DNA of 62,987 bases, filler included, from Folioceros fuciformis (lineage: Eukaryota), in assembly GCA_049999805.1 (NCBI GenBank). It is 6 parts of 6 records of this genome, joined end to end, with 100 filler letters (N's around TTAATTAATTAA, not from the genome) between each part and the next. Parts side by side here need not be neighbours in the genome. Positions count along the whole stretch, not along the records: positions 48,784 to 62,987 come from JBNGIO010006110.1; 5 more parts are not named here. One strand, written 5' to 3'. Both the position numbers and the translations under genes were made by a program. Shown one piece after another: positions 15,330 to 59,500 of this stretch (its first letter is position 1; every line of letters starts with the position of its first letter). The notes beneath the pieces were generated by a model. That model had not been told where the DNA came from, searched no databases, and worked only from the letters and a program-made list of their open reading frames with translations.

Positions 15330-17053
15330 GATAATACTTCTTCACACGCCAGCCATTAACCCTGGTTGGTAAGTTGGGGCCGTTGAGGTGCTGCAATTGA
15401 ATGGACCCGTTCTCATACACCTCTAGCACCTTGTAAGGTCCCATCCATCTCAAGTGCAGCTTACCTGGAAAGTGCATGTACCTATTGTCGTATTACAAGG
15501 CTAAATCTCCAGGCACAACATACTCCTGTTTACGCAACTTACGGTCATGCCACTTCTTCCTCCTCTCCTGAACATCAAGGAAAACCGCCAAGGCCCGTTC
15601 CCTATCCTCATCATGCTGCACAAAACTGGTTAGCCTCTCCAGTTGGCTCTCCTCCACGGTCAATCGGTTGCTCTCCTGCATCCTCAAGGTAGGTACCTCA
15701 AATTCGATGGGCATGATCGGTGAGTGTCCATAGGTGAGGTAATAAGGGGTCTGCTGGGTAGTAACCTTCTCAGCAGTCATGTATGCCCACAAGGCTGAGT
15801 GGAGTTTCCTATCCCAGTCATGAGCATAGGTGACGGTGAGTTTGCTGAGGATCTTGCACAACAGCCCATTAGCCTTCTCCGTGAGCCCATTGGCCTTAGG
15901 GTTGTAGGGAGTGGTCTTCCTATGACTGATATTGAAATATTCAGTCATGTGCTTGACTACTTCATTGATGAAGTGAGTCCCCCTATCACTCACTAGCTCC
16001 AACGGGCACCCATACCTCGTGATGATCTGCTCAAACAAAAATCTGGCCACCACATTTGCTGTGTCCACGGGCAAAGCTTGAGCCTCCACCATGCGTGTGC
16101 AGTAGTCGGTTGCCACCAGGATGTATTGGTTTTGCCTTCCCTTGGACTTGGGCTGAATTGGTCCTACAAAATCAATCCCCCACTTCTCAAATGGCACTAG
16201 GGCTAGGATGGGGACCAATGGCCATTGTGTGGTCCTGGTAGGCTTCCCCACCCTTTGGCATGCATCACACCTCTTGATGAATTCTCCAGCCTCAGCATAC
16301 ATTGCCGGCCCACCAATACCCTGCTGCCAGAATTTTCTTGCAGGTCACATGGGCTGCATAATGACCCCCAGCCTCTCCCTCGTGTAAGGAGCTGATAACT
16401 TGCTCCACTTGGCCAGGTTTGACCCACAACCTCTCCGCGCCATCAGCCCCTGTGCGATACAGCCTGCCCTTGTACTTAACCACTAGCCTTGTGAAGTACA
16501 AGAACAGCCGCTGCTGCTGCCGTGAGAGATCAACTGGAATTTCCCCTGTGTCTAAGAAAACAGACACCTCTTGATAGGAAGGCTTACGAAACCCCCTTCT
16601 CCCCTTCTCATTTAGTGCTGCCTCTTCACCTCTTGGTGGCCTAGTATTTGGTTTGGCCACCTCCTTCTCCACTAGGTTTGCTGAAAAAGCCTCATCCGGA
16701 AAATCATCTTCTTGGTCCTGAACCACCTTCTCCGTTTTCAGCCTGGACAGAAAATCAGCATTCACATGCCCGCGCCCTTCCCTTGTTTCCACGGTGAATG
16801 TGAACTCCTGCAAGAGCAAGATCCAGCGGGCTATGCGGCCCGATAAGTCTGCCTTGTTGACCAGGTGTTTGAGAGCAAAATGATCAACATGGAAGACAAA
16901 CTCATAGGCGAGAAGGTAGTGGCGGAATTTACGACAGGAGTAAACCATGCCGAGTGCCTCCTTCTCGGTTGTGGTGTACTTGCGTTCAGCCTCTGTAAGT
17001 TGTCGCCCAGCATAGTAGATTGGGTAGTCCCTCCCCTTCTCATCCCGTTGGCT
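15330..17053 (-). mobile_element. Ty3/gypsy (non-chromovirus, Athila/Tat-like) pol: RNase H, H2C2 zinc finger, integrase and GPY/F. Frameshifted and truncated by the scaffold end
   Basis: AERKYTTTEKEAL...KFRHYLL...VDHFALK...GRIARWILLLQEF; LHEGEAGGH...CDACQR; FEKWGIDFVGP, SDRGTHF, NGLTEKANG; FPGKLHLRWMGPY. Confidence 0.93.
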
Positions 17054-17190: not shown

Positions 17191-20100
17191 TTGACTCCAA
17201 TTTTTACTTCTAAGGTCCATTGTGACTTCATGGCTCAACCAAAATCCTCATTGGTTGTTTCCAAAGCCCATCATTCGTTCTGCAAAGCCTGCTCTTTAGC
17301 AAAGTTAGGATCGAGACCATCCTATGCAAAGGACACCAAAGAAAATATACCATTCTTGCAAAGAATCCAAGGTGATATTTGTGGACCTATTCAACCACCA
17401 TGCGGACCATTTAGATATTTTATGGTGTTGGTTGATGCATCGACACGCTGGTCACATGTCATGCTATTGTCCACAAGGAACGCTGCATTTGCTAAACTCC
17501 TAGCACAAATAATTAAGTTACGGGCTCACCACCCTGATCATCCCATTAAGTCTATAAGATTAGACAATGCTGGGGAGTTTACATCAAAGACTTTTGATGA
17601 TTATTGCATGTCCATTGGGATTGATGTTGAACATCCTGTTCCTCATGTTCATACCCAAAATGGTCTCGCAGAAGCCACCATTAAACGACTTCAAATGGTT
17701 GCTCGAGCATTGGTGATGCGCACCAATCTCCCTATTTCTGCTTGGGGCTATGCAATATTGCATGCAGCTGTGCTTATTCGTCTGAGGCCCACTGCCACCC
17801 AACCCTTCTCTGCGTCCCAGATGGTTACTGGGTATGAGCCTGATGTCTCACACTTACGCATATTTGGGTGTGCAGTCTATGTGCCTATTGCGCCGCCACA
17901 GCGCACCAAAATGGGTCCTCAAAGACGATTAGGCCTTTATGTTGGATATGATTCTCCAACGATTATCCGCTACATAGAACCCTTGACAGGCGATCTCTTT
18001 ACCGCTAGATTTGCGGATTGTCACTTCGATGAGACAGTCTTCCCGTCGTTAGGGGGAGATAAGAACATCAATGTTCAACAGGAACGACAGGAATTGTCGT
18101 GGTCTGTCCCCACTCTGTCTCATCTTGATCCCCGAACCGCACAGTCAGAAATTGAAGTGCGGAGAATTCTCGATCTTCAGAACGTAGCAGATTCGATGCC
18201 TGATGCGTTTTCTGATATCGCTAAAGTGACGAGATCACACATACCTGCTGCAAACGTGCCTGCAAGGATTGATGTCCCTAAAAGTAGAGGACATGACGCC
18301 AACTCAAGAATGCATGAGCATGGCGCCAACGTCCCATCTCTCAATGATGGTGACGTTATGGCTAGGCCCACGGCTCCCGCCAAGAAGCGCGGGAGGCCCA
18401 TAGGTTCGATGGATTCTCGCCCAAGAAAGAAAGCGAGTTCGGCACAAAATAATCCATTAATCATCGATGTAAATAATCCATCTCATGAGAATATTCCGGA
18501 TTATGGTTATGTCCAAGAGACATCATTGGGGGACGCTCCAATGTCAGAACCAACTCCAGAGAATAGAGAGATCTCCATAAATTACACTAGTGTACATGAG
18601 ATGATGGATAGAAATTCTATGGCGATTGATGATGCATTTGCATATCATATTGCAAAAGGAATTATAGAATATGATGATATCGAACCTCGCTCTGTTGAAG
18701 AATGTCAACGAAGAGCAGATTGGCCTAAATGGAAAGATGCGATCCAGGTTGAATTGGATTCACTAACAAAGAGACAGGTATTTGGGCCTATAACGCTGAC
18801 ACCCCCAAGTATAAAGCCTGTTGGCCATAAATGGGTCTTTGTTAGAAAGCGTAATGAGAAAAATGAGGTTGTTAGATACAAAGCCCGCCTTGTGGCGCAA
18901 GGTTTCTCACAACGCCCTGGAATTGACTACGAGGAGACATATTCTCCCGTAATGGACGTTATAACGTTCCGCTACCTTGTCAGTTTGGTAGTTTCCGAAA
19001 AACTTGACATGCAGCTTATGGATGTGGTTACAGCATATCTCTATGGGGATCTAGATTCAGAGATATATATGAAGGTTCCAGATGGACTTCAATTACCCAA
19101 ATCAAGTGGCTCTAAACCACGGAGCGCGTTTTCAATAAGATTAAAACGCTCACTATATGGATTAAAACAATCCGGACGGATGTGGTATAACCGTCTAAGT
19201 GACTACTTGATTGGGAAGGGATATATTAACAATGAAATATGCCCATGCGTGTTCATTAAAAGAACAAGTTCCGGATTTGCAATCGTAGCAGTTTATGTCG
19301 ATGACATGAACCTAATTGGAACTCTAGATGAGTTGAAGGAAACTGCTAAATACTTGAAATCCGAATTTGAGATGAAAGATCTTGGGAAAACACGGTTTTG
19401 TCTCGGTTTAGAACTCGAGCACCGTAGTGATGGAATCTTGATCCATCAGTCTGCATATACTCAGAAAATCCTAAGGCGCTTTAATGAAGATAAAGCAAAG
19501 CCTACGAGTACTCCCATGATCGGCCGTAGTCTTGAGCCCGGAAAAGATCCGTTTCGTCCAAGGGATGAGGACGAAGAACCATTAGAGGCCGAGGTGCCCT
19601 ATTTGAGTGCAATAGGCGCATTATTGTACTTAGCTCAATGCACAAGACCGGATATCTCATTCGCAGTGAACTTGTTAGCTCGACATAGCTCTGCGCCAAC
19701 ACGCCGCCATTGGATTGGTATAAAGACAATCTTTCGATACCTAAGAGGTACGATTGATATGGGCCTATTCTATCCCTACAGAGAGAAAAGGAATGACGGA
19801 AAATTGGGATTGGACCCCAAAAGGCAAAACGCCCCCGTCCATGGAATGGCCGCCGGCCATGTTGCCGCCGCCGGCGCCGCCACCGCTCATGGTGGCCGGC
19901 GTTCTCCTATCTCCCTCCATCAAAACGACAATGATGTCTTGATGGGTTTTGCTGATGCAGGGTACCTCTCTGACCCTCACAAAGGTCGCTCCCAAACTGG
20001 TTATGTCTTTACCATGGGAAGCACTGCGATATCTTGGAGGTCTACAAAACAGACCCTTGTTGCTACTTCCTCAAATCATGCAGAGATTATTGCTCTACAT

Positions 20101-20445
20101 GAAGCTGTACGTGAATGTGTATGGCTAAGGTCTGTAATTCGACACATTCAAGGAAGTTGTGGTTTGAAGTCTACCACAAATGAACCTACATGCATTTATG
20201 AGGATAATGCAGCTTGTATTGAACAAATGAAGTTAGGTTTCATCAAGGGCGACAACACCAAGCATATATCGCCTAAGTTCTTTTATAATCAGCAACAACA
20301 ATCACTTCTAAAGATTGAAGTGAATCAAATCCGATCAGAGGATAATGTAGCGGACTTATTCACTAAGTCGTTACCTAAATCCACCTTCGAGAAACATGTG
20401 AAGAGCATCGGATTGAGAAAGTTATCCGAACTCCCACGATTATAG
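17191..20445 (+). CDS. Copia pol polyprotein (integrase, RT, RNase H), 5'-truncated by the scaffold start
   Basis: CKAC, RIQGDICGP, RLDNAGEF, HTQNGLAE; YKARLVAQGF, MDVVTAYLYG, SLYGLKQSGR, VYVDD; FADAGY, IYEDNAAC, KGDNTKHISPKFF (Bianca-type), ADLFTK. Confidence 0.95.
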   Translation: MTPIFTSKVHCDFMAQPKSSLVVSKAHHSFCKACSLAKLGSRPSYAKDTKENIPFLQRIQGDICGPIQPPCGPFRYFMVLVDASTRWSHVMLLSTRNAAFAKLLAQIIKLRAHHPDHPIKSIRLDNAGEFTSKTFDDYCMSIGIDVEHPVPHVHTQNGLAEATIKRLQMVARALVMRTNLPISAWGYAILHAAVLIRLRPTATQPFSASQMVTGYEPDVSHLRIFGCAVYVPIAPPQRTKMGPQRRLGLYVGYDSPTIIRYIEPLTGDLFTARFADCHFDETVFPSLGGDKNINVQQERQELSWSVPTLSHLDPRTAQSEIEVRRILDLQNVADSMPDAFSDIAKVTRSHIPAANVPARIDVPKSRGHDANSRMHEHGANVPSLNDGDVMARPTAPAKKRGRPIGSMDSRPRKKASSAQNNPLIIDVNNPSHENIPDYGYVQETSLGDAPMSEPTPENREISINYTSVHEMMDRNSMAIDDAFAYHIAKGIIEYDDIEPRSVEECQRRADWPKWKDAIQVELDSLTKRQVFGPITLTPPSIKPVGHKWVFVRKRNEKNEVVRYKARLVAQGFSQRPGIDYEETYSPVMDVITFRYLVSLVVSEKLDMQLMDVVTAYLYGDLDSEIYMKVPDGLQLPKSSGSKPRSAFSIRLKRSLYGLKQSGRMWYNRLSDYLIGKGYINNEICPCVFIKRTSSGFAIVAVYVDDMNLIGTLDELKETAKYLKSEFEMKDLGKTRFCLGLELEHRSDGILIHQSAYTQKILRRFNEDKAKPTSTPMIGRSLEPGKDPFRPRDEDEEPLEAEVPYLSAIGALLYLAQCTRPDISFAVNLLARHSSAPTRRHWIGIKTIFRYLRGTIDMGLFYPYREKRNDGKLGLDPKRQNAPVHGMAAGHVAAAGAATAHGGRRSPISLHQNDNDVLMGFADAGYLSDPHKGRSQTGYVFTMGSTAISWRSTKQTLVATSSNHAEIIALHEAVRECVWLRSVIRHIQGSCGLKSTTNEPTCIYEDNAACIEQMKLGFIKGDNTKHISPKFFYNQQQQSLLKIEVNQIRSEDNVADLFTKSLPKSTFEKHVKSIGLRKLSELPRL

Positions 20446-48783: not shown

Positions 48784-48823
48784 ATACAAGGGGTTCATGT
48801 CGTCCCTTGGTTGCACTGAAATG

Positions 48824-51237
48824 TCATCTACGGCTGCCATTTCGATGTGAATGATGAGCTTTCTGCAACAGTAGCTTGCACAAGGCAGCACTCATCTCCC
48901 CAAGAGAGATAGGTTTCAACACTACTCCATCCATACCTATTTCCAAGCACCGTTTCTGTGTACCCTTGTCAGTGTTTGCAGTTAAGGCTATCACCAGTGG
49001 GCGCTCCTCTGGCCTAAATCTCTGATGAATCTGCATTGCTACTTCATACCCGTCCATCTCCGGCATGCAAAGGTCAAGTAGGAGCACTTCAAACGTTCTA
49101 CCAGGTTGAGCTAAGGTGGCTAGACACTGGTGGCCAGATTCTACAACTGTTGTGTTACACCCTAATCGGTCCAGCAGTCTGCGGGTGACAATCCTGTTTA
49201 CACTGTTGTCATCGGTGACCAAAACTTTCAGACCTTTGAGATCTGCTTTGTTAAGAGCCTCATCCCTGATTTTCCGCTCCTTTTCAATAGAGGAGTTCTG
49301 CAGCTGAAGCCTAACAATGAATGTGACCGTGGACCCCTTACCCAAGCCCTCACTTTCAATCCAGATGTGCCCATGCATGAGCTGCACCAGGAAACACAGG
49401 TAAAAGTTGGTAACCGTTCAAGAAGAGACATCATACAGAACCACACTGCTAACCAACCAACCAAACCATTCTGAATACCGGTAGCAGTAAAGGAGATTAC
49501 CTGAACGAATTTCTTACAAATGGCCAGACCTAACCCTGTCCCCCCATAGTCCCTAGTCGTAGTACTATCAGCCTGAACAAACTTTTGGAACAGCCTTGGA
49601 ATATCACTGTCTTTCACCCCAAGACCTGTGTCTCTCACCTCAATTCGAATGTAAACAAACCCTTCACAAGGAGAAGGTCTCCAAGCTGGATTGGCAGGGT
49701 CTCGTTTGTTTTCGAGCCGTTCAACTGTCACATGCACATGCACACGGCCATGCTTCGTGAATTTCACAGCATTCCCAATTACGTTCAGTGAGGTCTGCAA
49801 AAGCCTTTTGTCATCGCCGATAACATAGGTGGGGACATCATCCGCAACTTCAAAAATGAAATCTAAACCTTTCCCTTTAGCCATAGGTTTAGCCAGATTT
49901 CCTGCCTCACGCAAGACAGTGGGTAGGTCAAAGGGGCCAAGCTCAAGGGTAAGACTACCATCCTCCAGGCGGGAGAAATCCAACACATCATTGATCAGGG
50001 TAGAAAGGAGGCTACTACTTTTTACTACTGTCTCCACCATAGACTTCTGTTCAGCATTCAAGGACGACTCTTGAAGGAGTGAGGAGAGAGCAATGATTGC
50101 ATGCATGGGAGTCCGCATCTCATGATTCATAACGGCAAGGAAATCATTTCGGGCCCTGATCGCAGTGTCAGCGTCCTGCCTTGCCTGCTGCAATGCCTTG
50201 TTTTGCTCAATAAGTTGGTCTCTTGTTCTTTGAGACTCTTCCAGAACAGCAGCATGAGAAAGGGCAACTGCTACCTGATCCGCCACTCCTTCAGCCATCT
50301 CCAATTCATGGGACCTCCACGTCCGACCACTCTCACCAGGTAGCACTAATACCATAACAGCGTACGAGGCGTCCACCATAGCCATATGCAGCAAAGGGAG
50401 TCTGACTGCTGCCGTTGCACCTACCAGTTGTCTGCGATTACTTTCTCTACCTAGAGGACAGGTTGGAGGAATAACGACAGTCCCATAAGAGGAGATCACA
50501 TCTAAAACGAACGGATCGTCTGCAGGTACTGTCACCGGCACTTGCAACAACCGACGCTCCAGCTCGTGGGTGAGCTCCAACACATTCAGATTAGGATTGG
50601 GCATCCAAACTGTGCAATTCTCCAAACACAACGTCTTGGCTAGCTCTACAAGTGTCGTGTTGAGGATGGTGTGACGATCCAAGGAACTGCGGATCTCATG
50701 AGTCAGCATTCTCACATGTCGACCAGCCTCCTCCTGTGCTTTGATCATATCCATCTCCCTATCTAACTCAGCAGCCTTATGCTTCAAAAAGTGCTCCCTC
50801 ACTTTCACCTGCAATAACTCGGGAATGATGTGAATGAGAGTTATTGCAGTAGCACAGGAAACAAGAGCCGTCAAAACCTTCAATATAGTCTGCACCAGCA
50901 TGATGAAGAAAGAATGGGGACCATATGTCCAGATAGATATAAAGTGGGTCAACCCACAGAGGACGATGAAGGCCCCAAACTGGATGAGGATCCATCTGAA
51001 CGGGAGCATCTTAGAGCAGCTCACAAAGTAGAGGAGTTCCAGGGGTATGGAGAAGTAGGCGAGTGCAATCAAAAAATCACTCCCCAGTTGGAGGCGAGCA
51101 AGTGTCTCCAATCCCCACAGATCATCCTCACAGGAGCATCTGGACAGACCTGCGCCGGTTGTGTCCTGGGCACTACCAATCACCACCACTGCCAAAATCC
51201 CAACAAGCGCCATGGATGCCTCCCAGAACAGCCCCAT
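48824..51237 (-). CDS. Ethylene receptor (ETR-type: ethylene-binding TMs, GAF, His kinase, receiver). Exons 51237-49501 and 49381-48824
   Basis: SDFLIALAYFSIPLEL, QFGAFIVLCGLTH, GRHVRMLTHEIRSSLDRHTIL, VADQVAVALSHA, MNHEMRTP, GNAVKFT, DTGLG, GTGLGLAIC, TDDNSVNR, LDLCMPEMDG, LKP. Confidence 0.96.
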
Positions 51238-53003
51238 GGTACACACTTGCACAGCAGGAACGGCCACTTCCTCAGCCAAACCCAACCGGGGACCTGCCAC
51301 AGGGCACCAAATGCAACAAAAAAGTCAGCACCCATCAGATCTCTCAAAAACCCTCACCTCCACAACGTCACAAATCCACGAATCAGTCAAACTCCTTCAC
51401 CACCCACCACGAGCTGCCGTCTTCTCCACAACCTTGATCTACCAAGCATCGCCGTTCAGCCACACCATCCCATACCCACATCTGACAAACGAAAGCCTCC
51501 TCACCTGAATCTAGATCGTCAACTAGTGGATCACGGCGAAACCTTGGGTCCCCAAAAGCCATACCCTCAACCACGCAATATACACCCAAAAACCAGCTCA
51601 GAATCAAATCCCAACCTCCTAAAATTCCAGTCGTCCTGCAGCTGACATCCGGCCTGACAGCGGCATCACCACTCCAAGCTTACACGACCTCTCCCACCAG
51701 CCTGCTACTGCTGTTGCTGCTACTGGATGCAAAAACTAATCTTGAGCACGGCATGAGCTTTGCTTTCTCAGATCAAAACTCCCTCCTTGGCTTGGCCCCA
51801 AATCCTGAGACCCATAAACCCTAGGCTGCGACAGCAATCGGGCCACCACCTCCACATTCCTGCTGTGNNNNNNNNNNNNNNNNNNNNNNNNNNNNNNNNN
51901 NNNNNNNNNNNNNNNNNNNNNNNNNNNNNNNNNNNNNNNNNNNNNNNNNNNNNNNNNNNNNNNNNNNCCAGTCTAGGATTCCGCCTCCCGCACAGACATG
52001 TCGGGCTCCTGTGCTGCTCAGCCGAGATACCACCCACCAGGAGAAAGGGAAGAGGAGAAGGATGGAGCGCTCACGCGCACAGACAGCAAACAGGAGCCAA
52101 TCGCGCACCACAGTGGCCAGCCAGGACTCACACCCGGACCCAGTCATCAGCTGTCCCGCGAACAATGCCGGTCTCGGCTTGCGACTCGCAGCCCAAAACG
52201 GCCCCGCTTGCTACATTATTGAAAGCATTAAATGCACAACTCCAGGCAGCCACGTGACATCCGGAGCTGCTTGTGTGGACCCATCCTCCTCGGCCATGTG
52301 GCTATCTGATGTATTCCGGGAATGTTTTCTTCTCTGGCACCGCCGGTATCGAAGGCTCCGGCGCCGAGAGGTGAAAACGCGGCGGCTCCTGATTGCACCA
52401 GCAAGTCGCGTTTTCTTCACCCCAGCCTGCTACGAGCCCGGCGGGAACTTTCGGGTAGGCTTGAAAGTACCCAGGATGAAAGGGAGTTGGTTGGTTGAGC
52501 TCATCCAACACAGGCCCTGGCCAAGTGACACGGCGGTGGATCTGCGGGAGATCGCCTGCACGCACGCTACTCCCTCCCAGCCCGCCGCGTGTCCCCACAA
52601 ACCACCCACCTGTTGAGACAATACACGCCTGGGCCTGCAATGCGTTCAACAAACCAGAAGAATGTCTATCCCGAGCTGCAGCAGTTATGTCGTAGGGACG
52701 TACATCTGGGCCCGGTGCAGATCTTTCGAGATTGGGCTCCATGTGAAAGCCTGTTGCGTCCTGGAGTCCTGGACCTGGAATTCCTGGATCAACAGCAACT
52801 GCCCCTTCAACCATGACTTCATCAAGCAGCCACGAAATGTATCAAGCGGTAGATCTACCACCAAGTAGGATCTGGATGCTCACAGTGATCAGAGTCCAAT
52901 CCAGTCTGACACATATACTGGTTCTCTCTAGGCTTTTTACACGGAATGACAGCAGTAAGCTGTAGAGAGGAATTATGTACACACGGTACGCTCTGGAATC
53001 CAG

Positions 53004-54406
53004 TCAAGGGCCCGTTTCCTCCAGGATGGCACATCCCAGCACCTGACCCCTCGAGAGTCCCATGCACGCAACAGTCCTCCACACGGCAGCTCCATCTCCG
53101 ACACCTGGCCTGCATGCCAGCACCGAGTTCAGCCTGACCACGTCGAACTTTTTCCAGTGCTCGGGAGAGGGCTTCCACGTCAGCAGCTTGCCACCCAGCA
53201 CGTACAGCTCATCCTTGAGGCCGATGAGGCCGAAGTTGAAGCCCTTGTGGCGACGGCCTTCTGCTGTATCCACGCCGGGGACGGCAGAAACGCTCATCCA
53301 CGTTTTGGTCTCCGGCTCATAGGCCTTGATGGTGTTACCGTCCCAGTCGTCCAGAGCATACATTCTGCCGTTCATAGCCGTGACGGGACAAGGCATCTGC
53401 CGGGAAAAGAGCCAAACGTCTTGGAGCGAGTACCACACAGCCTGGGCAGGGTCATAGATGTCCACCGTCCTCTGGTCATGGTGGTTCTCCACCAGACCAG
53501 CTATCACGTAGAACAAGCCGTTGAGGGAAACCCCGACACAGTCTTCTCTGCCGGTGGGTAGAGGCGGAATATCCTCCCACCTGCAAAAAGAAAAAAAAAA
53601 TCAGCAAGGGCGAATCCTGTTATCCGGAGGAATTAGTTGCTAAACAAGAGTCCACAAGAAACGGAATGATCAAAAACCATCACCCCGTCCGACTCCTACC
53701 TATCCGCCACAGGATCATACACCTCTGCATCAGCAAGGGGCTCCTTCTTGTGAGAAGTGCAGCCTCCCGCAACATAAACCTTACCACCGATGGCTGCACA
53801 TGCGAAATTGCATCGTGGAACCCTCATCGATGCTGCTCTGCTCCATTGCCGTGAGAATGGGTCAAAAGCCAGCACTTCGTCAGTGGCAAAGAATTTGATG
53901 GGCTGCATCGGAGGTTCGCAAGCGGCATAGTGCCCACCGAGCACCAACAATTTCTTCATAACCCCGACAGAAACAAAGCCATAGTGACGCCGCTGAGCAC
54001 TCACCCCTGCACCGCCACCATGCATGCGCCATAGAATCAAGTCACATCACAAGACCACACTAAACACCTCCAAAAACGCCACTGACACAAACCAGCGAAT
54101 CCATCGTCACACCCCATTTGTTCTTGTACCTGGCATCGATGGCAACGGATGCCACTTCCCAGCAGCTGGATCGAATGCAGTCCATCTACCATCCCTAGGC
54201 TCCTCCGTCAGCACAAACAGCCAGTCCCCGCATCTGCCTTCTCTGAGCTGGCAATTGGCGTACTCACGGCTCCCAAGCACATGCTGCCATGACTTGCACA
54301 CTGCTCGCAGAACTCCATGAAAACCGTGAGGAATCTTTGCCAAACACAGCAAAGCTAGGTCGTTCGGCAGGCCAGGAATCAGCAGCTCCTCTTCGCCACC
54401 CTCCAT
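53004..54406 (-). CDS. F-box/kelch-repeat protein (3 exons)
   Basis: LIPGLPNDLALLCLAKIP F-box, and kelch motifs LLVLGG, WSRAASMRVPRCNFACAAIGGKVYVAGG, AEVYDP, FYVIAG, LYVLGG. Confidence 0.92.
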
Positions 54407-55199
54407 CTTGCCCCTGTGACCATGACATCATAGATCTCTAAGACAATGTATCAAAACGGACACGGCTGGTCTAGCTCATCACAGGGTCACAGGGGTGACA
54501 AAGGCCCGGTGGGGGTAGGGGAAACGGGTGCTAGGTCACCTGGATTCAGAAGACAACCCCGGCCTTCCAGATCCAAAGCCCATGCATTTTCGCGATCTGA
54601 CCTAATGCCCGCAATCGAGTACCCACGCAAACCAGGGTGCTAGCTATCGTGCCTTTAATCTGGCTGCCATCGCCCGATCGCCTGATCTCCCGCTGCCGAG
54701 GCCATTCAACTCCAAGGTGTCCTTTCGAGTCAGTGAGAAACTCGATCAGGTTCACCTAACCCGACCCCGGCTAAAGTTAACTGTGCTACTTCCTTTCCCC
54801 ATGCTTTCTTCGGCCACATCGTTTCAAGACCCTGGGTCCAACAAGGCGGAGAGACCCACCGGTCGTCCAAAGAACCCCGCGGAAGAAGAACGCTATGTTC
54901 GGCGTAGGATTGCAGACGACACGATCGTTAGCAAAACGTCTATTACAGTGCGCAATTTTCTCTGTCAACTGGGGCTTATACGTCACCCCAGAACGCCGAA
55001 TGGGTTTCCCTTGTTTTGAGGTCTTGGCTCTCGTTCCTTCCCACCACATTTCCCCTACGTTCACACGGACACTGGACAGAGCAAGTATCTCTGCTCAGTT
55101 TAGTCGCCTCTCCAGAACCCACGTAGAGCCAATCACCTCAGGACAAAGCTTAGTCCAGCTCACCAAGTTTGGTACAGAAAAGCGGCCGTGACAAGTCTC

Positions 55200-56265
55200 C
55201 CAACAAAGACAACACAGTTTGCACATGGCAGCACCTCACGCAAGACAGAGGACAGTAGAGAACTCAAAGGGGTCAGGCTCAAAGGTAAGACTCCCATCCT
55301 CCAAGCTGCTGGAGAAATCCAGCACATCATTGATCAGGGTAGAAAGAAGGCTACTGCTTTTTCGACTTGTCTGCACCTTGTACTTCTAGAACTGTTCAGG
55401 ATTCAAGTACGACTCATGAAGGAGTGAGCAGAGAGCAGTCATCGCATACGTCGGAGTCATCTCATGATGCATGACGGCAAGGGAATCAATTCTAGCCCTG
55501 ATTGCAGTGCTGGGGTCCTGCGTTGCCTGCTGTAGTCAGTGCCTTGTTCTTGGTCTCTGGTTCTCTGGGACTCTTCCACAACGAGAGCATGAGAGGGCAT
55601 CACTCACCTGAATGGCCCTCTTCAGGCATCTCCAGGTCATAAGACCGCCGACCACTCTCTAGGCAGCACCACCACCGTGACAGCATACGAGGCGTCCACC
55701 ATAGACATATGCAGCAAAGGGAGTCTGACTGCTGCTGTTGCACCTACGAACTGCCTGTCGTACCTTTCTCTTCCTTGAGGGCAGGTTCAAGGAAAAACAA
55801 GGGCCCCCGTAGGAGGAGATTGCATCCAAACCAAAGGAATCCGTCTCGGCAACTTGCAACAACCGCCGGTCCAGCTCGTGGGTGAGCTCCAACACCTTCA
55901 GATTGGGATTGGGCAGCCAAATTGTGCAATTCTCCATACACAACGTCTTGGCGAGCTCCACGAGTGTCGTGTTAAGGATGGCGTGGCGATCCAAGGAACT
56001 GCGGATCTCATGAGTCAGCATTCTCACATGTCGACTAGCCTCTTCCTGTCCTTTGATCATATCCATATCCCTCTCTAACACCGCAGCTTTATGCTTCAAA
56101 AAGCTCTCCCTCGCTTTCACCTGCAATAACTCTGGAACGATGTGGGTGAGAGTGATTGCAGGAGCACAGGAAACAAGAGCCGTCAGCACCTTCAGTACAG
56201 TCTGCACCAGCATGATGAACGACGAATGGGGCTCATTATTTCCAGATGGATATAAAGTGGGTAAA
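55200..56265 (-). pseudogene. Partial, degenerate duplicate of the ethylene receptor gene
   Basis: PHSSFIMLVQTVLKVLTALVSCAPAITL...RHVRMLTHEIRSSLDRHAILNTTLVELAKTL is nearly identical to the 48824-51237 gene. Downstream GAF/HisKA sequence carries indels, and TM1, most of TM2 and the C-terminus are absent. Confidence 0.88.
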
Positions 56266-56550
56266 TCCAGAGAACAGAAATCAGGTTTCATCTCCGCTAA
56301 GCTCAACACATTTCACCTGATCCCTTTAAGTTCCGGAGTTCACCTATTTGCTTCAGACACCATCCCCTCAGGAGGAAACATTCAATTCCGTTTTTCTGTC
56401 TCCATGTGGGTGGGGATACTTTGTCCGTGGCAGCCACCCATTTTTGCTGTCTCAGTTTGAACAGGAATGGCCTTCAGCAAGCATGATCGCCCGTCACAAG
56501 AAGCATATGCCGTGGCACACGCAAATAAGAACTGGCAAGTTCTCCCCTTC

Positions 56551-59500
56551 TCATGGTCGCCCCTTACAACTGCAGCACCCAGCTGCGAATCGATGCACAC
56601 GGTACCCATCCCTTACAACAATGTCTCTCTTTTCCAGCCGCGACATGATCTCAGTGGAACTGTGGCAGTCACTGCACATGCGTAAGTTCTTGGTTACCAT
56701 CAGAGGGGTCCCACTCGGAGTGCTCAACAGGCCAAACGCCAGGGCTAGCTTCTCAGCATGCCCACAAAGCGCGTCTTCCTTTTCCTGCTCACACACTGGC
56801 TTCAACACCAACCTTGTAACCGGTACGTGACCTCCCTCCTGCTTCACGCGTGCATTCATGCCCTCTACCTTAAGCGCAATATCATCTCTGGTTTCTCCCA
56901 CCATAAAGCTATGTACATTCCTGTCCACCTCAATGGTCGCCACTGCAGGTTTCTTGTTGGCTCCTGCAGCCCTTCTCCGTGCCTCAGTCCTGTCTACATC
57001 GGCCCACCTACCTGCATCCGCATAGGCATTGGCCATGAGCACATAAGCAGCCGCCTCCTGGGGGTCCAGCCTAACGATGCTTTCAAAACAGATCATCGCT
57101 CTCTCCAAATCCCCGTGATTTTTGCAGGCATTCAACAAAGACGTCAATCCCACAACATTATTTTGGTCCTCGCATGAGGATAGCATCTTCTCGGCCTCAT
57201 CCAAGTAGCCAGCACGACCAAGAAGATCGATCATGCAGTTGTAATGCTCAATAGTTGGTTTGATGCCATGCTGTTCAGCCATGGAATCAAAGTGCTTGCG
57301 ACCCTCGTGGACCAGTCCCTCATGACTGCACGCTGCTAAAAGGCAAGTAAAAGTAGCATCAATAGGTTGAATCCCGGCAGCTAACATCTCCTCAAAACAA
57401 ACTAGTGCCTTGTGGCCTTCATCACAAGTACCATACCCAGATATCAGGGCGGTCCAAGTCACCACATCCCTCGCGTTCATGCTGTCAAAAGTTTGTCGTG
57501 CATCCTCCAATTCACCACATTTTGCATACATGTCCACTAGGCAGGTGCCCAACACTACGTTATCCATCAATCCTCTTTCAACCATATGCAAGTGCAGCTG
57601 CCTGCCCATCTTTAAGGCACCAGTGCTTCCACAGGCCTTCAGAAGGCAAGCAAGAGTAGCATCGTCAGCCAAAGTGAGGCCCGCCTCCTCCATTTGTCCA
57701 TACAAACCAAGCGCCTCTTGGCAGTGCCCATTCTGTGCATGCCCAGCAATCAGAGCGGTCCACGTCACCACATTCTTTGTTGCCAAGCCATAAAACACCT
57801 GGCGTGCATCTTCCAGTTCACCACATTTTGCATACATGTCCACCAGGCTGGTACCCACCAGAACGTCATCCAGCATTCCTCTTTCGACAATCTGTGAGTG
57901 CAGCTGCCTGCCCTTCTCTAAGGCCCCAGTGCTTGCACAGGCCTTCAGGAGGCAAGCAAAAGTAACCTGGTTAGCCAAAATGAGGCCAGCAACCTCCATT
58001 TGTCCATATACAACAAGCGCCTTTTGGCAAAGTCCTTGTTGTGCATACCCACCAATCAGTGCATTCCATGTCACCACATCCTTTGAGTTCATGCTGTCGA
58101 AAATCTGGTGTGCTTCTTCCAGCTCACAACATTTTGCATACATGTCCACCAGGCAGGTGCCCAGCACTACGTTATCCAGCAGTCCTCTTTCCACAATCTG
58201 CGAGTGCAGCTGCCTGCCTTTCTGTAAGGCACCGGTGCTCGCACAGACCTTCAGAAGGCAAGCAAGGGTAACATGGTTAGCCAAAACAAGGCCTTCCTGC
58301 TCCATTTGTTCGTACAGAACAAGCGCCTCTTGGCCGAGTCCTTGCTGTGCATACCCAGCAATCAGTGCCGTCCAGGTGACCACGTCCTTCGTGCACATGC
58401 TTTCAAAGATCTGGCGTGCAGCTTCCAGCTCACCACATCTTGCATACCCAGATAACAGGGCATTCCATGTCACCACATCCTTTGTCCCCATCTTGTCGAA
58501 AACCTGGCGAGCATCTTCCAGTTCGCCACATTTTGCATACATGTCTACCAGGCAGTTGCTAACAAACAAGTTGGTAGGAATGCCACTGAGTAGCACATCA
58601 GAGTGCACTTTCCTGCCAGACACTAAGTCCGCGGCCAATGCACAAGCTTGTAGGGCAGCTACAAAGACATGGGCATTGGCCTTCACTCCCGACCTACGCA
58701 TCTCATGGTACAGTTGTACGGCCTCATTAGGTCTCCCATGCTTCGCGTATGCAGAAATTATGGAAAACCACATGAAGGCATCTGGTTTCCCCACCTTGGT
58801 GAACACATCCATGGCCTCCTCTAGCCTACCTCCACGTGCATACATGCGCAAGATATGGTTCCCCAAGTAAGCACTCGAGTCGCACCCAAGTTTGACAACA
58901 ACATCATGCACTCGTCGCCCCATAACCAAATCCCTCTTAGCCGTACACAGTTTCAGTACAGTGTAGAGGAGAGACTGAGAGATGGCAGAGCCTGTCTGTG
59001 CCAGAGATTCCAGCGCTGCAACGGACTCAGAAAGCTTCCCCTGGTGACACAACATGCTTACAGTGTCAGCCGTGACCACGCCCATTCCCATTCCCATTCC
59101 CATTCCCGATCCTGCACGCCTGCCAGTTTCAGCGTCATCCGGAGATCTCAACCGGGAAGGAGAGGCACCTTGCCCAATGTGCATATCCAACGAAATGAGC
59201 TGCTCATCAACCCATGACGGCTTGAATACGTTGTTTAACCACAGGACCTCACCGGACCCCTTGCGCCGGAAGTCAGGCGAACGGGAGCTCTGCTTATCTC
59301 GCCTGTTGTCCCACCACATGGTTGGCTCCAGAAAAAATTGCTGCCACAAGTGCTCCTGCTCCCGACCAAGACCATCGCTGGAAAACACGTCCCCACCCAC
59401 ACACTCCTTCCGAAATGGAAGTGCCGGGCTCCTTACACTGCTGCACCTGGCCGCTTGGTTTGCCAAGGGTTCACTCCCTGAGGTGAGGTGAGGCAAGGGT

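Follow-up and report, generated by a model that had tools for sequence, protein, structure and literature searches.

Architecture of the gene and its product

The DNA analysed here, referred to as the window, is a stretch of 62,987 nucleotides from Folioceros fuciformis (GenBank assembly GCA_049999805.1) made of six parts joined by filler, the last of which (positions 48,784–62,987) comes from JBNGIO010006110.1. On its minus strand this part carries a gene for a pentatricopeptide repeat (PPR) protein, here named P0001, in which a stretch resembling the PDF motif of the OSB family (organellar proteins that bind single-stranded DNA) stands in front of a PPR array and a C-terminal DYW:KP domain. 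The gene is a single, intact and intronless open reading frame (ORF) of 1,006 codons and a stop codon, as judged from the ORF list and its translation, and a stop codon lies two codons 5' of its first ATG. The following features were assigned.

56551–59571, minus strand: whole ORF of P0001, comprising presequence, PDF module, linker, PLS-type PPR array, E motif and DYW:KP domain (ORF list, translation, Pfam)
59368–59571, minus strand: presequence-like N-terminus, a putative organelle targeting peptide, residues 1–68 (composition only)
59197–59352, minus strand: core of the PDF motif, residues 74–125, the part flagged in the original prediction (translation; invariant family residues all there)
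59170–59379, minus strand: full PDF module, residues 65–134 (AlphaFold2 model; a motif profile aligns to residues 69–132)
59032–59196, minus strand: low-complexity linker with (Gly-Met)4, residues 126–180 (read from the sequence; its start overlaps the last helix of the module)
57118–59031, minus strand: PLS-type PPR array, approximately residues 181–818 (Pfam PPR, E 4.9e-96, 15 stretches; PPR_2, E 1.3e-90)
56929–57117, minus strand: E motif, residues 819–881 (Pfam PF20431, E 1.9e-15)
56554–56952, minus strand: DYW:KP domain, delimited as the C-terminal 133 residues, 874–1006 (Pfam DYW_deaminase, PF14432, residues 914–1004, E 9.1e-32)

P0001 has a tandem PPR array followed by an E motif, the arrangement that marks PLS-class editing factors. 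The interval 59197–59352 translates exactly to HLWQQFFLEPTMWWDNRRDKQSSRSPDFRRKGSGEVLWLNNVFKPSWVDEQL, which is 52 residues long. Residues 1–68 consist to 51% of Ser, Thr, Ala, Pro, Gly and Arg with few acidic residues before residue 56, and no relatives of this region were found. Translation, Pfam and composition agree with the original prediction, which had been made from the sequence alone, in placing the motif after a presequence-like N-terminus and ahead of the PPR array. The window contains no other copy of the motif, the best remaining tblastn match having an E value of 0.019 over 21 residues.

The C-terminal domain contains a KP box (KKPAVATIEV, residues 873–882, with the lysine at 874), the zinc-binding HxE and CxDCH elements in the form of HAE at 938 (GHAEKLA) and CSDCH at 966, and a C-terminus of ...CSCKGRP. 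Position 88 of the domain is K961 (in TKNLRMC) when counted from the lysine of the KP box as the assumed start, and a role of Lys88 in the KP domain is described in PMC11845758. According to PMC9478123, the PG box is replaced by a KP box and HSE by HAE in the hornwort 'GRP' variant, whose last three residues are GRP. The KP box, HAE, CSDCH, K961 and the terminal GRP thus uphold the DYW:KP label that the protein had been given, and by its sequence this domain is a hornwort GRP-type DYW:KP domain, the type held to carry out U-to-C editing, which in PMC9478123 is shown for designer consensus proteins only.

Homology of the N-terminal motif to OSB proteins

Residues 64–135 of P0001 were searched with phmmer, exhaustively, against 1.84 billion cluster representatives. 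At E ≤ 1e-3 the search recovered 605 proteins, of which 164 also passed a limit of ≤ 1e-10 and 16 a limit of ≤ 1e-30; 2–13 stretches per protein were matched in many cases. Names were looked up for 30 matches, and four of these are OSB names: Amborella 'protein OSB3, chloroplastic/mitochondrial' (P0013, E 1.4e-39), Populus nigra 'protein OSB1, mitochondrial-like' (P0033, E 1.1e-23), Euphorbia peplus 'organellar single-stranded DNA binding protein 3' (P0039, E 6.9e-23) and Drosera 'OSB1, mitochondrial-like' (P0100). In an alignment of 54 sequences the window copy keeps all nine invariant columns (W76, D88, R90, K93, D100, F101, W111, P118 and W120) and all five that are nearly invariant. On this likeness, which goes far beyond chance, the stretch in P0001 is a genuine homologue of the OSB PDF motif. 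The match to named OSBs and the full set of invariant columns confirm the original reading of W.D.R..K....PDFKHK..GEALWL as that motif. Pfam, which has no model for PDF, returned no family at E ≤ 10 for the motif alone, and a word-index search with residues 55–135 gave no scored matches; relatives were later found by phmmer, so that the latter result is no evidence of absence.

P0001 shares with the OSB family the possession of at least one PDF motif. The four named OSBs also have an SSB-like OB-fold (PF00436, residues ∼70–185) N-terminal to their motifs, with E values of 8.5e-20 for P0100 and of 1e-4 to 7e-4, below Pfam's cut-off, for P0013, P0033 and P0039. No SSB or OB-fold is present among the 25 best of the 29 Pfam families matched by P0001 at E ≤ 10, and only 73 residues precede its PDF motif. 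Because this OB-fold is lacking, membership of P0001 in the OSB family was ruled out, and the PDF module is all that they have in common.

The PDF motif is described as the ∼50-residue unit of OSBs that binds single-stranded DNA (ssDNA) (PMC6963530, PMC4166229, PMC13393729), and binding of single-stranded nucleic acid is the role that we favour for it in P0001. The main alternative to nucleic-acid binding is that the module forms a protein–protein contact surface, which could serve self-association, the recruitment of OSBs or other PDF proteins, or docking of an editosome component. AtOSB2 is reported to be a tetramer (PMC6963530), tandem PDF arrays reach up to 13 stretches in one protein, as do some interaction repeats, and a protein interface could likewise account for the conservation of Trp, Phe and Pro residues. 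However, no partner is indicated and the sole recorded function of the motif is ssDNA binding (PMC6963530, PMC4166229), and we regard a protein-contact role as unlikely.

Several further matches of this search stand out. The dinoflagellate Effrenium voratum is given as the source of P0004, a protein of 730 residues with nine PDF stretches (E 1.1e-50), and of five further members of its cluster; P0004 has no SSB or PPR match in Pfam at E ≤ 0.01. P0002 from Kingdonia uniflora has 13 motif stretches in 1,160 residues. P0047 from Coptis chinensis combines the motif with a kinesin motor, perhaps through a fusion in the gene model.

Integrity and conservation of the fusion

The PDF motif and the PPR array of P0001 constitute, on the sequence evidence, a real fusion: they lie in one uninterrupted ORF, a contig of a public sequencing run bridges them, and the same join recurs in other plants. 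The contig, from run X1, is 488 bases long, matches the window exactly over 58869–59356, and reaches from the motif through the linker into the first PPR region; the kind of this run can only be guessed (RNA) and it may be the source sample, so that its support is not independent. Positions 59567–59808 have no X1 cover, a gap that carries no weight. An artefact of assembly or gene modelling that attached an OSB-like fragment to a PPR gene is scarcely credible. Some database matches do resemble model fusions, for example the kinesin protein P0047, and a run of N lies 650 bases upstream of the gene (60215–60226). Against this, the frame is open with no stop between the motif and the PPRs, there is no OB-fold upstream, the exact X1 contig crosses the junction (with the reservation about its source given above), and several dozen proteins from separate assemblies have the same layout.

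The core columns of the motif are 87–100% conserved in PPR-linked (n=53) and other (n=380) instances alike. At each of the six motif positions listed as variable in X1, 8–33 further contigs carry another letter. Of these six, four leave the residue unchanged (synonymous) and the other two, Q94K and E82D, are conservative, with Q94K shifting towards the family consensus. In the rest of the gene there are at least 14 synonymous and at least 20 non-synonymous differences among those listed, nine further differences lying outside the list. The motif is conserved across paralogs, a point on which the original prediction had been prepared to fall: P0111 and P0189, the nearest relatives of P0001, carry it in the same position, and further X1 contigs lie on it.

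In the linker, (Gly-Met)4 is encoded by a cccatt microsatellite at ∼59081–59107, and repeats at 59069–59118 were skipped in the mapping of reads to the window. Upstream of the gene, the assembly gap at 60215–60226 is flanked on both sides by the same ∼50 bases (ttcagtctttgtttgttgttctcctctctgttgattcccgtctcagg), amid related tandem repeats. Beyond it lies a tandem paralog of the PPR-DYW:KP gene (60916–62987, minus strand), whose frame is broken at ∼62589–62595 and near the C-terminus (...GCCSARVGRD... compared with ...GCCSCKGRP). This copy is either a pseudogene or affected by assembly errors, and its N-terminus, where a PDF motif would be expected, falls past the end of the window (62987).

Predicted fold and retention of the module

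AlphaFold2 models the module as a compact alpha/beta domain with a mean predicted local distance difference test score (pLDDT) of 86.8 and a predicted template modelling score (pTM) of 0.71. The modelled elements are a helix at residues 65–81, strands at 86–88 and 101–103, and a second helix at 120–134. A hidden Markov model (HMM) of the motif aligns to residues 69–132 of P0001 with an independent E value (i-E) of 5.5e-26. The linker that follows comprises about 45–55 residues, has no aromatics, and consists to 53% of Ser, Thr, Ala, Pro, Gly and Arg. The module thus models as an autonomous alpha-beta-beta-alpha domain that would be tethered to the PPR solenoid by a flexible, low-complexity linker.

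Removal of the module together with the transit peptide is judged unlikely because it is a conserved and foldable domain on a flexible tether. Presequences are not conserved to the degree seen for the core columns of the PDF motif. It could still be supposed that the module survives as a relic without function, or belongs to the presequence that is cleaved off, having been carried along as PPR genes multiplied by retroposition, given that the motif is near the N-terminus (residues 74–125), that some relatives such as P0214 are without it, and that decayed half-motifs stand upstream of the intact motif in Diphasiastrum proteins. The conservation of the core columns holds, however, in 53 PPR-linked instances from ferns, lycophytes, a moss, a liverwort and further contigs, differences among related contigs are mostly synonymous, and the module gives a confident folded model, all of which makes a relic very improbable.

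Distribution among plants and DYW classes

Nine PPR proteins are present among the 150 phmmer representatives listed; they match the PPR part of P0001, and Pfam confirms seven of them. These PDF-PPR proteins are P0082 (KAI5076972.1) and P0061 from Adiantum, P0132 from Ceratopteris, P0123 from Pteridium, P0151 (XP_024517303.1) from Selaginella, P0142 (CAM6033764.1) from Sphagnum compactum, which has the canonical end ...CSCRDYW, P0005, with three motifs and no DYW, P0111, which ends in GGRP and is nearest to the window copy, and P0141.

A full-length search with P0001 was used to collect its 120 best PPR relatives, which were scanned with a motif HMM built from 376 instances (cut-off i-E < 1e-5); the query and the index words contained the motif, and this sample is biased towards motif carriers. 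The motif was found in 33 of the 120, in one to three copies and always N-terminal to the PPRs. Carriers make up 26 of the 32 listed proteins of Diphasiastrum complanatum, one of which (O6H91_13G002800, P0194) has three PDF motifs, both proteins of Calypogeia fissa (including P0271), the one protein of Sphagnum jensenii, and one of 19 (partial) of Adiantum capillus-veneris. The remaining three carriers are the JGI-sourced P0223 and P0234, and P0189, a protein of 950 residues that is 56% identical to P0001, ends in GGRP and has the motif in the same place. No carriers were found among three proteins of Adiantum nelumboides, seven of Ceratopteris, six of named seed plants (Cryptomeria, Musa and Centaurea), and 13 'Gb_' entries, which we take to be from Ginkgo. 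The original statement that typical editing PPR proteins have no such domain agrees with the seed-plant proteins seen (none of the six named) and fails for Diphasiastrum.

Many of the Diphasiastrum PDF-PPR proteins also contain a decayed half-motif (RKEALWINNRFNPHWV...) ∼40 residues upstream of the intact one (P0200, P0213, P0225, P0230, P0232, P0246, P0250 and P0264), apparently what is left of a second copy that has been lost.

The relatives were sorted into DYW classes by a rough regular expression applied to their last 150 residues. With the reservation that the classes are rough and the sample biased, the motif is present in one of 22 KP-like proteins, 15 of 31 with the canonical HSE...D(Y/F/S)W signature and 17 of 67 without a DYW signature. 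Five GRP-ending proteins were seen, of which P0001, P0111 and P0189 carry the motif and P0209 and P0214 do not; P0214 has a different N-terminus, and the gene call of P0209, which starts with the PPR array, may be truncated. The order of PDF motif then PPR array is thus seen in lycophytes, ferns, a moss, a liverwort and hornwort-like contigs, in proteins that have a canonical DYW domain, a DYW:KP domain or neither. By its sequence distribution the PDF-PPR fusion is neither unique to P0001 nor tied to DYW:KP, and the sample gives no support for an enrichment among KP proteins.

These counts bear on the suggestion in the original prediction that the module is special to U-to-C (DYW:KP) factors, in which it would tether the enzyme to ssDNA in nucleoids or transcription bubbles and permit co-transcriptional editing, or would reflect a DNA substrate. 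The PDF motif of AtOSB1 suffices for ssDNA binding according to reviews citing Zaegel 2006, OSB1 and OSB2 prefer ssDNA to RNA (PMC6963530, PMC4166229), and the core residues are fully kept in PPR-linked copies. An adaptation confined to KP enzymes is not what the class counts show, and as an account of the module it has a low probability. Without the KP specificity, tethering to nucleoids is a possible variant of the nucleic-acid-binding role that we favour.

A tree of 433 motif instances was built with FastTree from 53 PPR-linked copies, belonging to 40 proteins, and 380 others. The PPR/other label changes six times on this tree, compared with 46–53 changes in 200 shuffles, and the window copy is placed together with one of the three copies of P0005 and with P0111 (support 74). 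Such a pattern is in keeping with an old fusion, or a few of them, later propagated along with the PPR family. Reservations are the shortness of the motif and the confounding of the label with taxonomy, since the PPR-linked copies are from non-seed plants and the non-PPR matches whose names were looked up (21 of the 30) are mostly from seed plants; in addition, some of the rows labelled 'other' are truncated PPR genes, such as P0114, which JGI names as a PPR protein.

Other features of the window

Four further ORFs were recognized by eye elsewhere in the window.

15493–16302, minus strand: integrase-like piece of a retrotransposon polyprotein
17191–20445, plus strand: long copia-type Gag-Pol-like ORF of 1,084 residues
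34866–36683, minus strand: ORF for a P-type PPR protein of 605 residues
49228–51300, minus strand: ethylene-receptor-like histidine-kinase ORF of 690 residues, probably one exon of a spliced gene

Discussion

P0001 combines two parts that are each well known. Like OSBs, it is nuclear-encoded with an N-terminal presequence-like region and has the full conserved core W..(F/L)(F).P..WWDNR..K....PDFKHK..GE.LW....P.WV, and its whole-protein E values to named OSBs are 1e-23 to 1e-39. In OSBs, however, the PDF unit or units follow an OB-fold, whereas the one in P0001 precedes a PPR array and a deaminase-like domain; between the LW and P.WV blocks, most PPR-linked units are longer by two residues. At its other end P0001 resembles the hornwort GRP PPR-DYW:KP proteins that were the basis of the designer proteins KP2 and KP3 (PMC9478123), with which it shares a PLS array, an E motif, the KP box, HAE, CxDCH, Lys88 and the terminal GRP. 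The account of this subgroup in PMC9478123 describes the PPR, E and DYW parts, and KP2 and KP3 have an N-terminal thioredoxin/His tag and no PDF module (PMC9478123). The closest likeness is to the other PDF-PPR proteins of non-seed plants, in which a presequence, one to three PDF units and a PLS-type PPR array follow in the same order; unlike P0001, most of these end in a canonical DYW or in none, they have up to three copies of the motif, and they are annotated only as hypothetical or PPR proteins.

No published link between the PDF motif and PPR proteins was found in the literature searched, although an earlier mention is possible. In the searched literature the term 'PDF motif' is used for organellar DNA replication and repair, or in unrelated senses, with no tie to PPR proteins found, and the main text of a 2026 survey of domain fusions among editing factors contains neither OSB nor PDF. 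As judged from the sequences compared, P0001 thus places a known module in an architecture that is new and seems to be common.

We propose that the module stays on the mature protein and binds single-stranded nucleic acid without sequence specificity, as it does in OSBs, in an accessory role, and by analogy with these proteins we put the chances of this at about even. PPR arrays bind RNA in parallel, with the N-terminus of the protein at the 5' end of the RNA and the DYW domain at the edited base. Because of this polarity a tethered PDF module would be placed just upstream (5') of the RNA element recognized by the PPR array. In this place the module might raise affinity or prolong residence, or else hold the RNA upstream in an unfolded state. 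The ligand would be RNA or, in the variant in which the editor is tethered to nucleoids, organellar ssDNA.

Several points weigh against this proposal. AtOSB1 and AtOSB2 prefer ssDNA over dsDNA or RNA (PMC4166229), which speaks against an RNA ligand and favours the DNA variant. No solved structures resembling the modelled module were found, so that the fold gives no hint of function, and many of the conserved aromatics may form the hydrophobic core of a small domain rather than stack on bases. Since P0209 and P0214 end in GRP and do not carry the motif, the module is dispensable for at least some proteins of this kind, and the sample from which its frequency was taken favours carriers. Finally, nucleic-acid binding by a PPR-linked PDF module and cleavage of the presequence are both putative.

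A more specific form of the proposal is suggested by the distribution of MORF/RIP proteins, which act as accessory factors with PLS-type PPR editors and are in this respect functional analogues of what we propose for the PDF module. According to PMC13386178, seed plants are the only group with reported MORF genes, and DYW:KP domains have been reported from hornworts, lycophytes and ferns alone. All PDF-PPR proteins seen here belong to non-seed plants, so that they and the MORFs have complementary distributions. The two have no sequence or fold kinship, and MORFs act in trans whereas the PDF module is in cis; functional equivalence of the two is speculation. The complementary pattern invites, and does not show, the reading that the PDF module is a helper or clamp in cis for PLS-type editors in lineages without MORF/RIP, which would raise affinity or couple editing to the nucleoid and which would have become dispensable and been lost once trans-acting MORFs arose in seed plants. 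We attach only a small probability to this reading. If it is true, a whole subclass of PDF-PPR proteins exists that has gone unrecognized, and the module might improve GRP-based designer editors, which are weak, with U-to-C editing of 22–26% in E. coli (PMC9478123).

The absence of a Pfam model for PDF means that domain annotation misses the motif and that proteins such as those described here are filed as 'hypothetical' or 'PPR'. The findings widen the PDF motif from a signature of OSBs to a mobile module, which is also present in arrays in a dinoflagellate protein. PDF-PPR proteins are common in at least one lycophyte and may mark a sizeable, overlooked subclass of editing factors in plants where MORFs are absent, and their architecture bears on how the editors of early land plants gain affinity or are positioned relative to the organelle genome.

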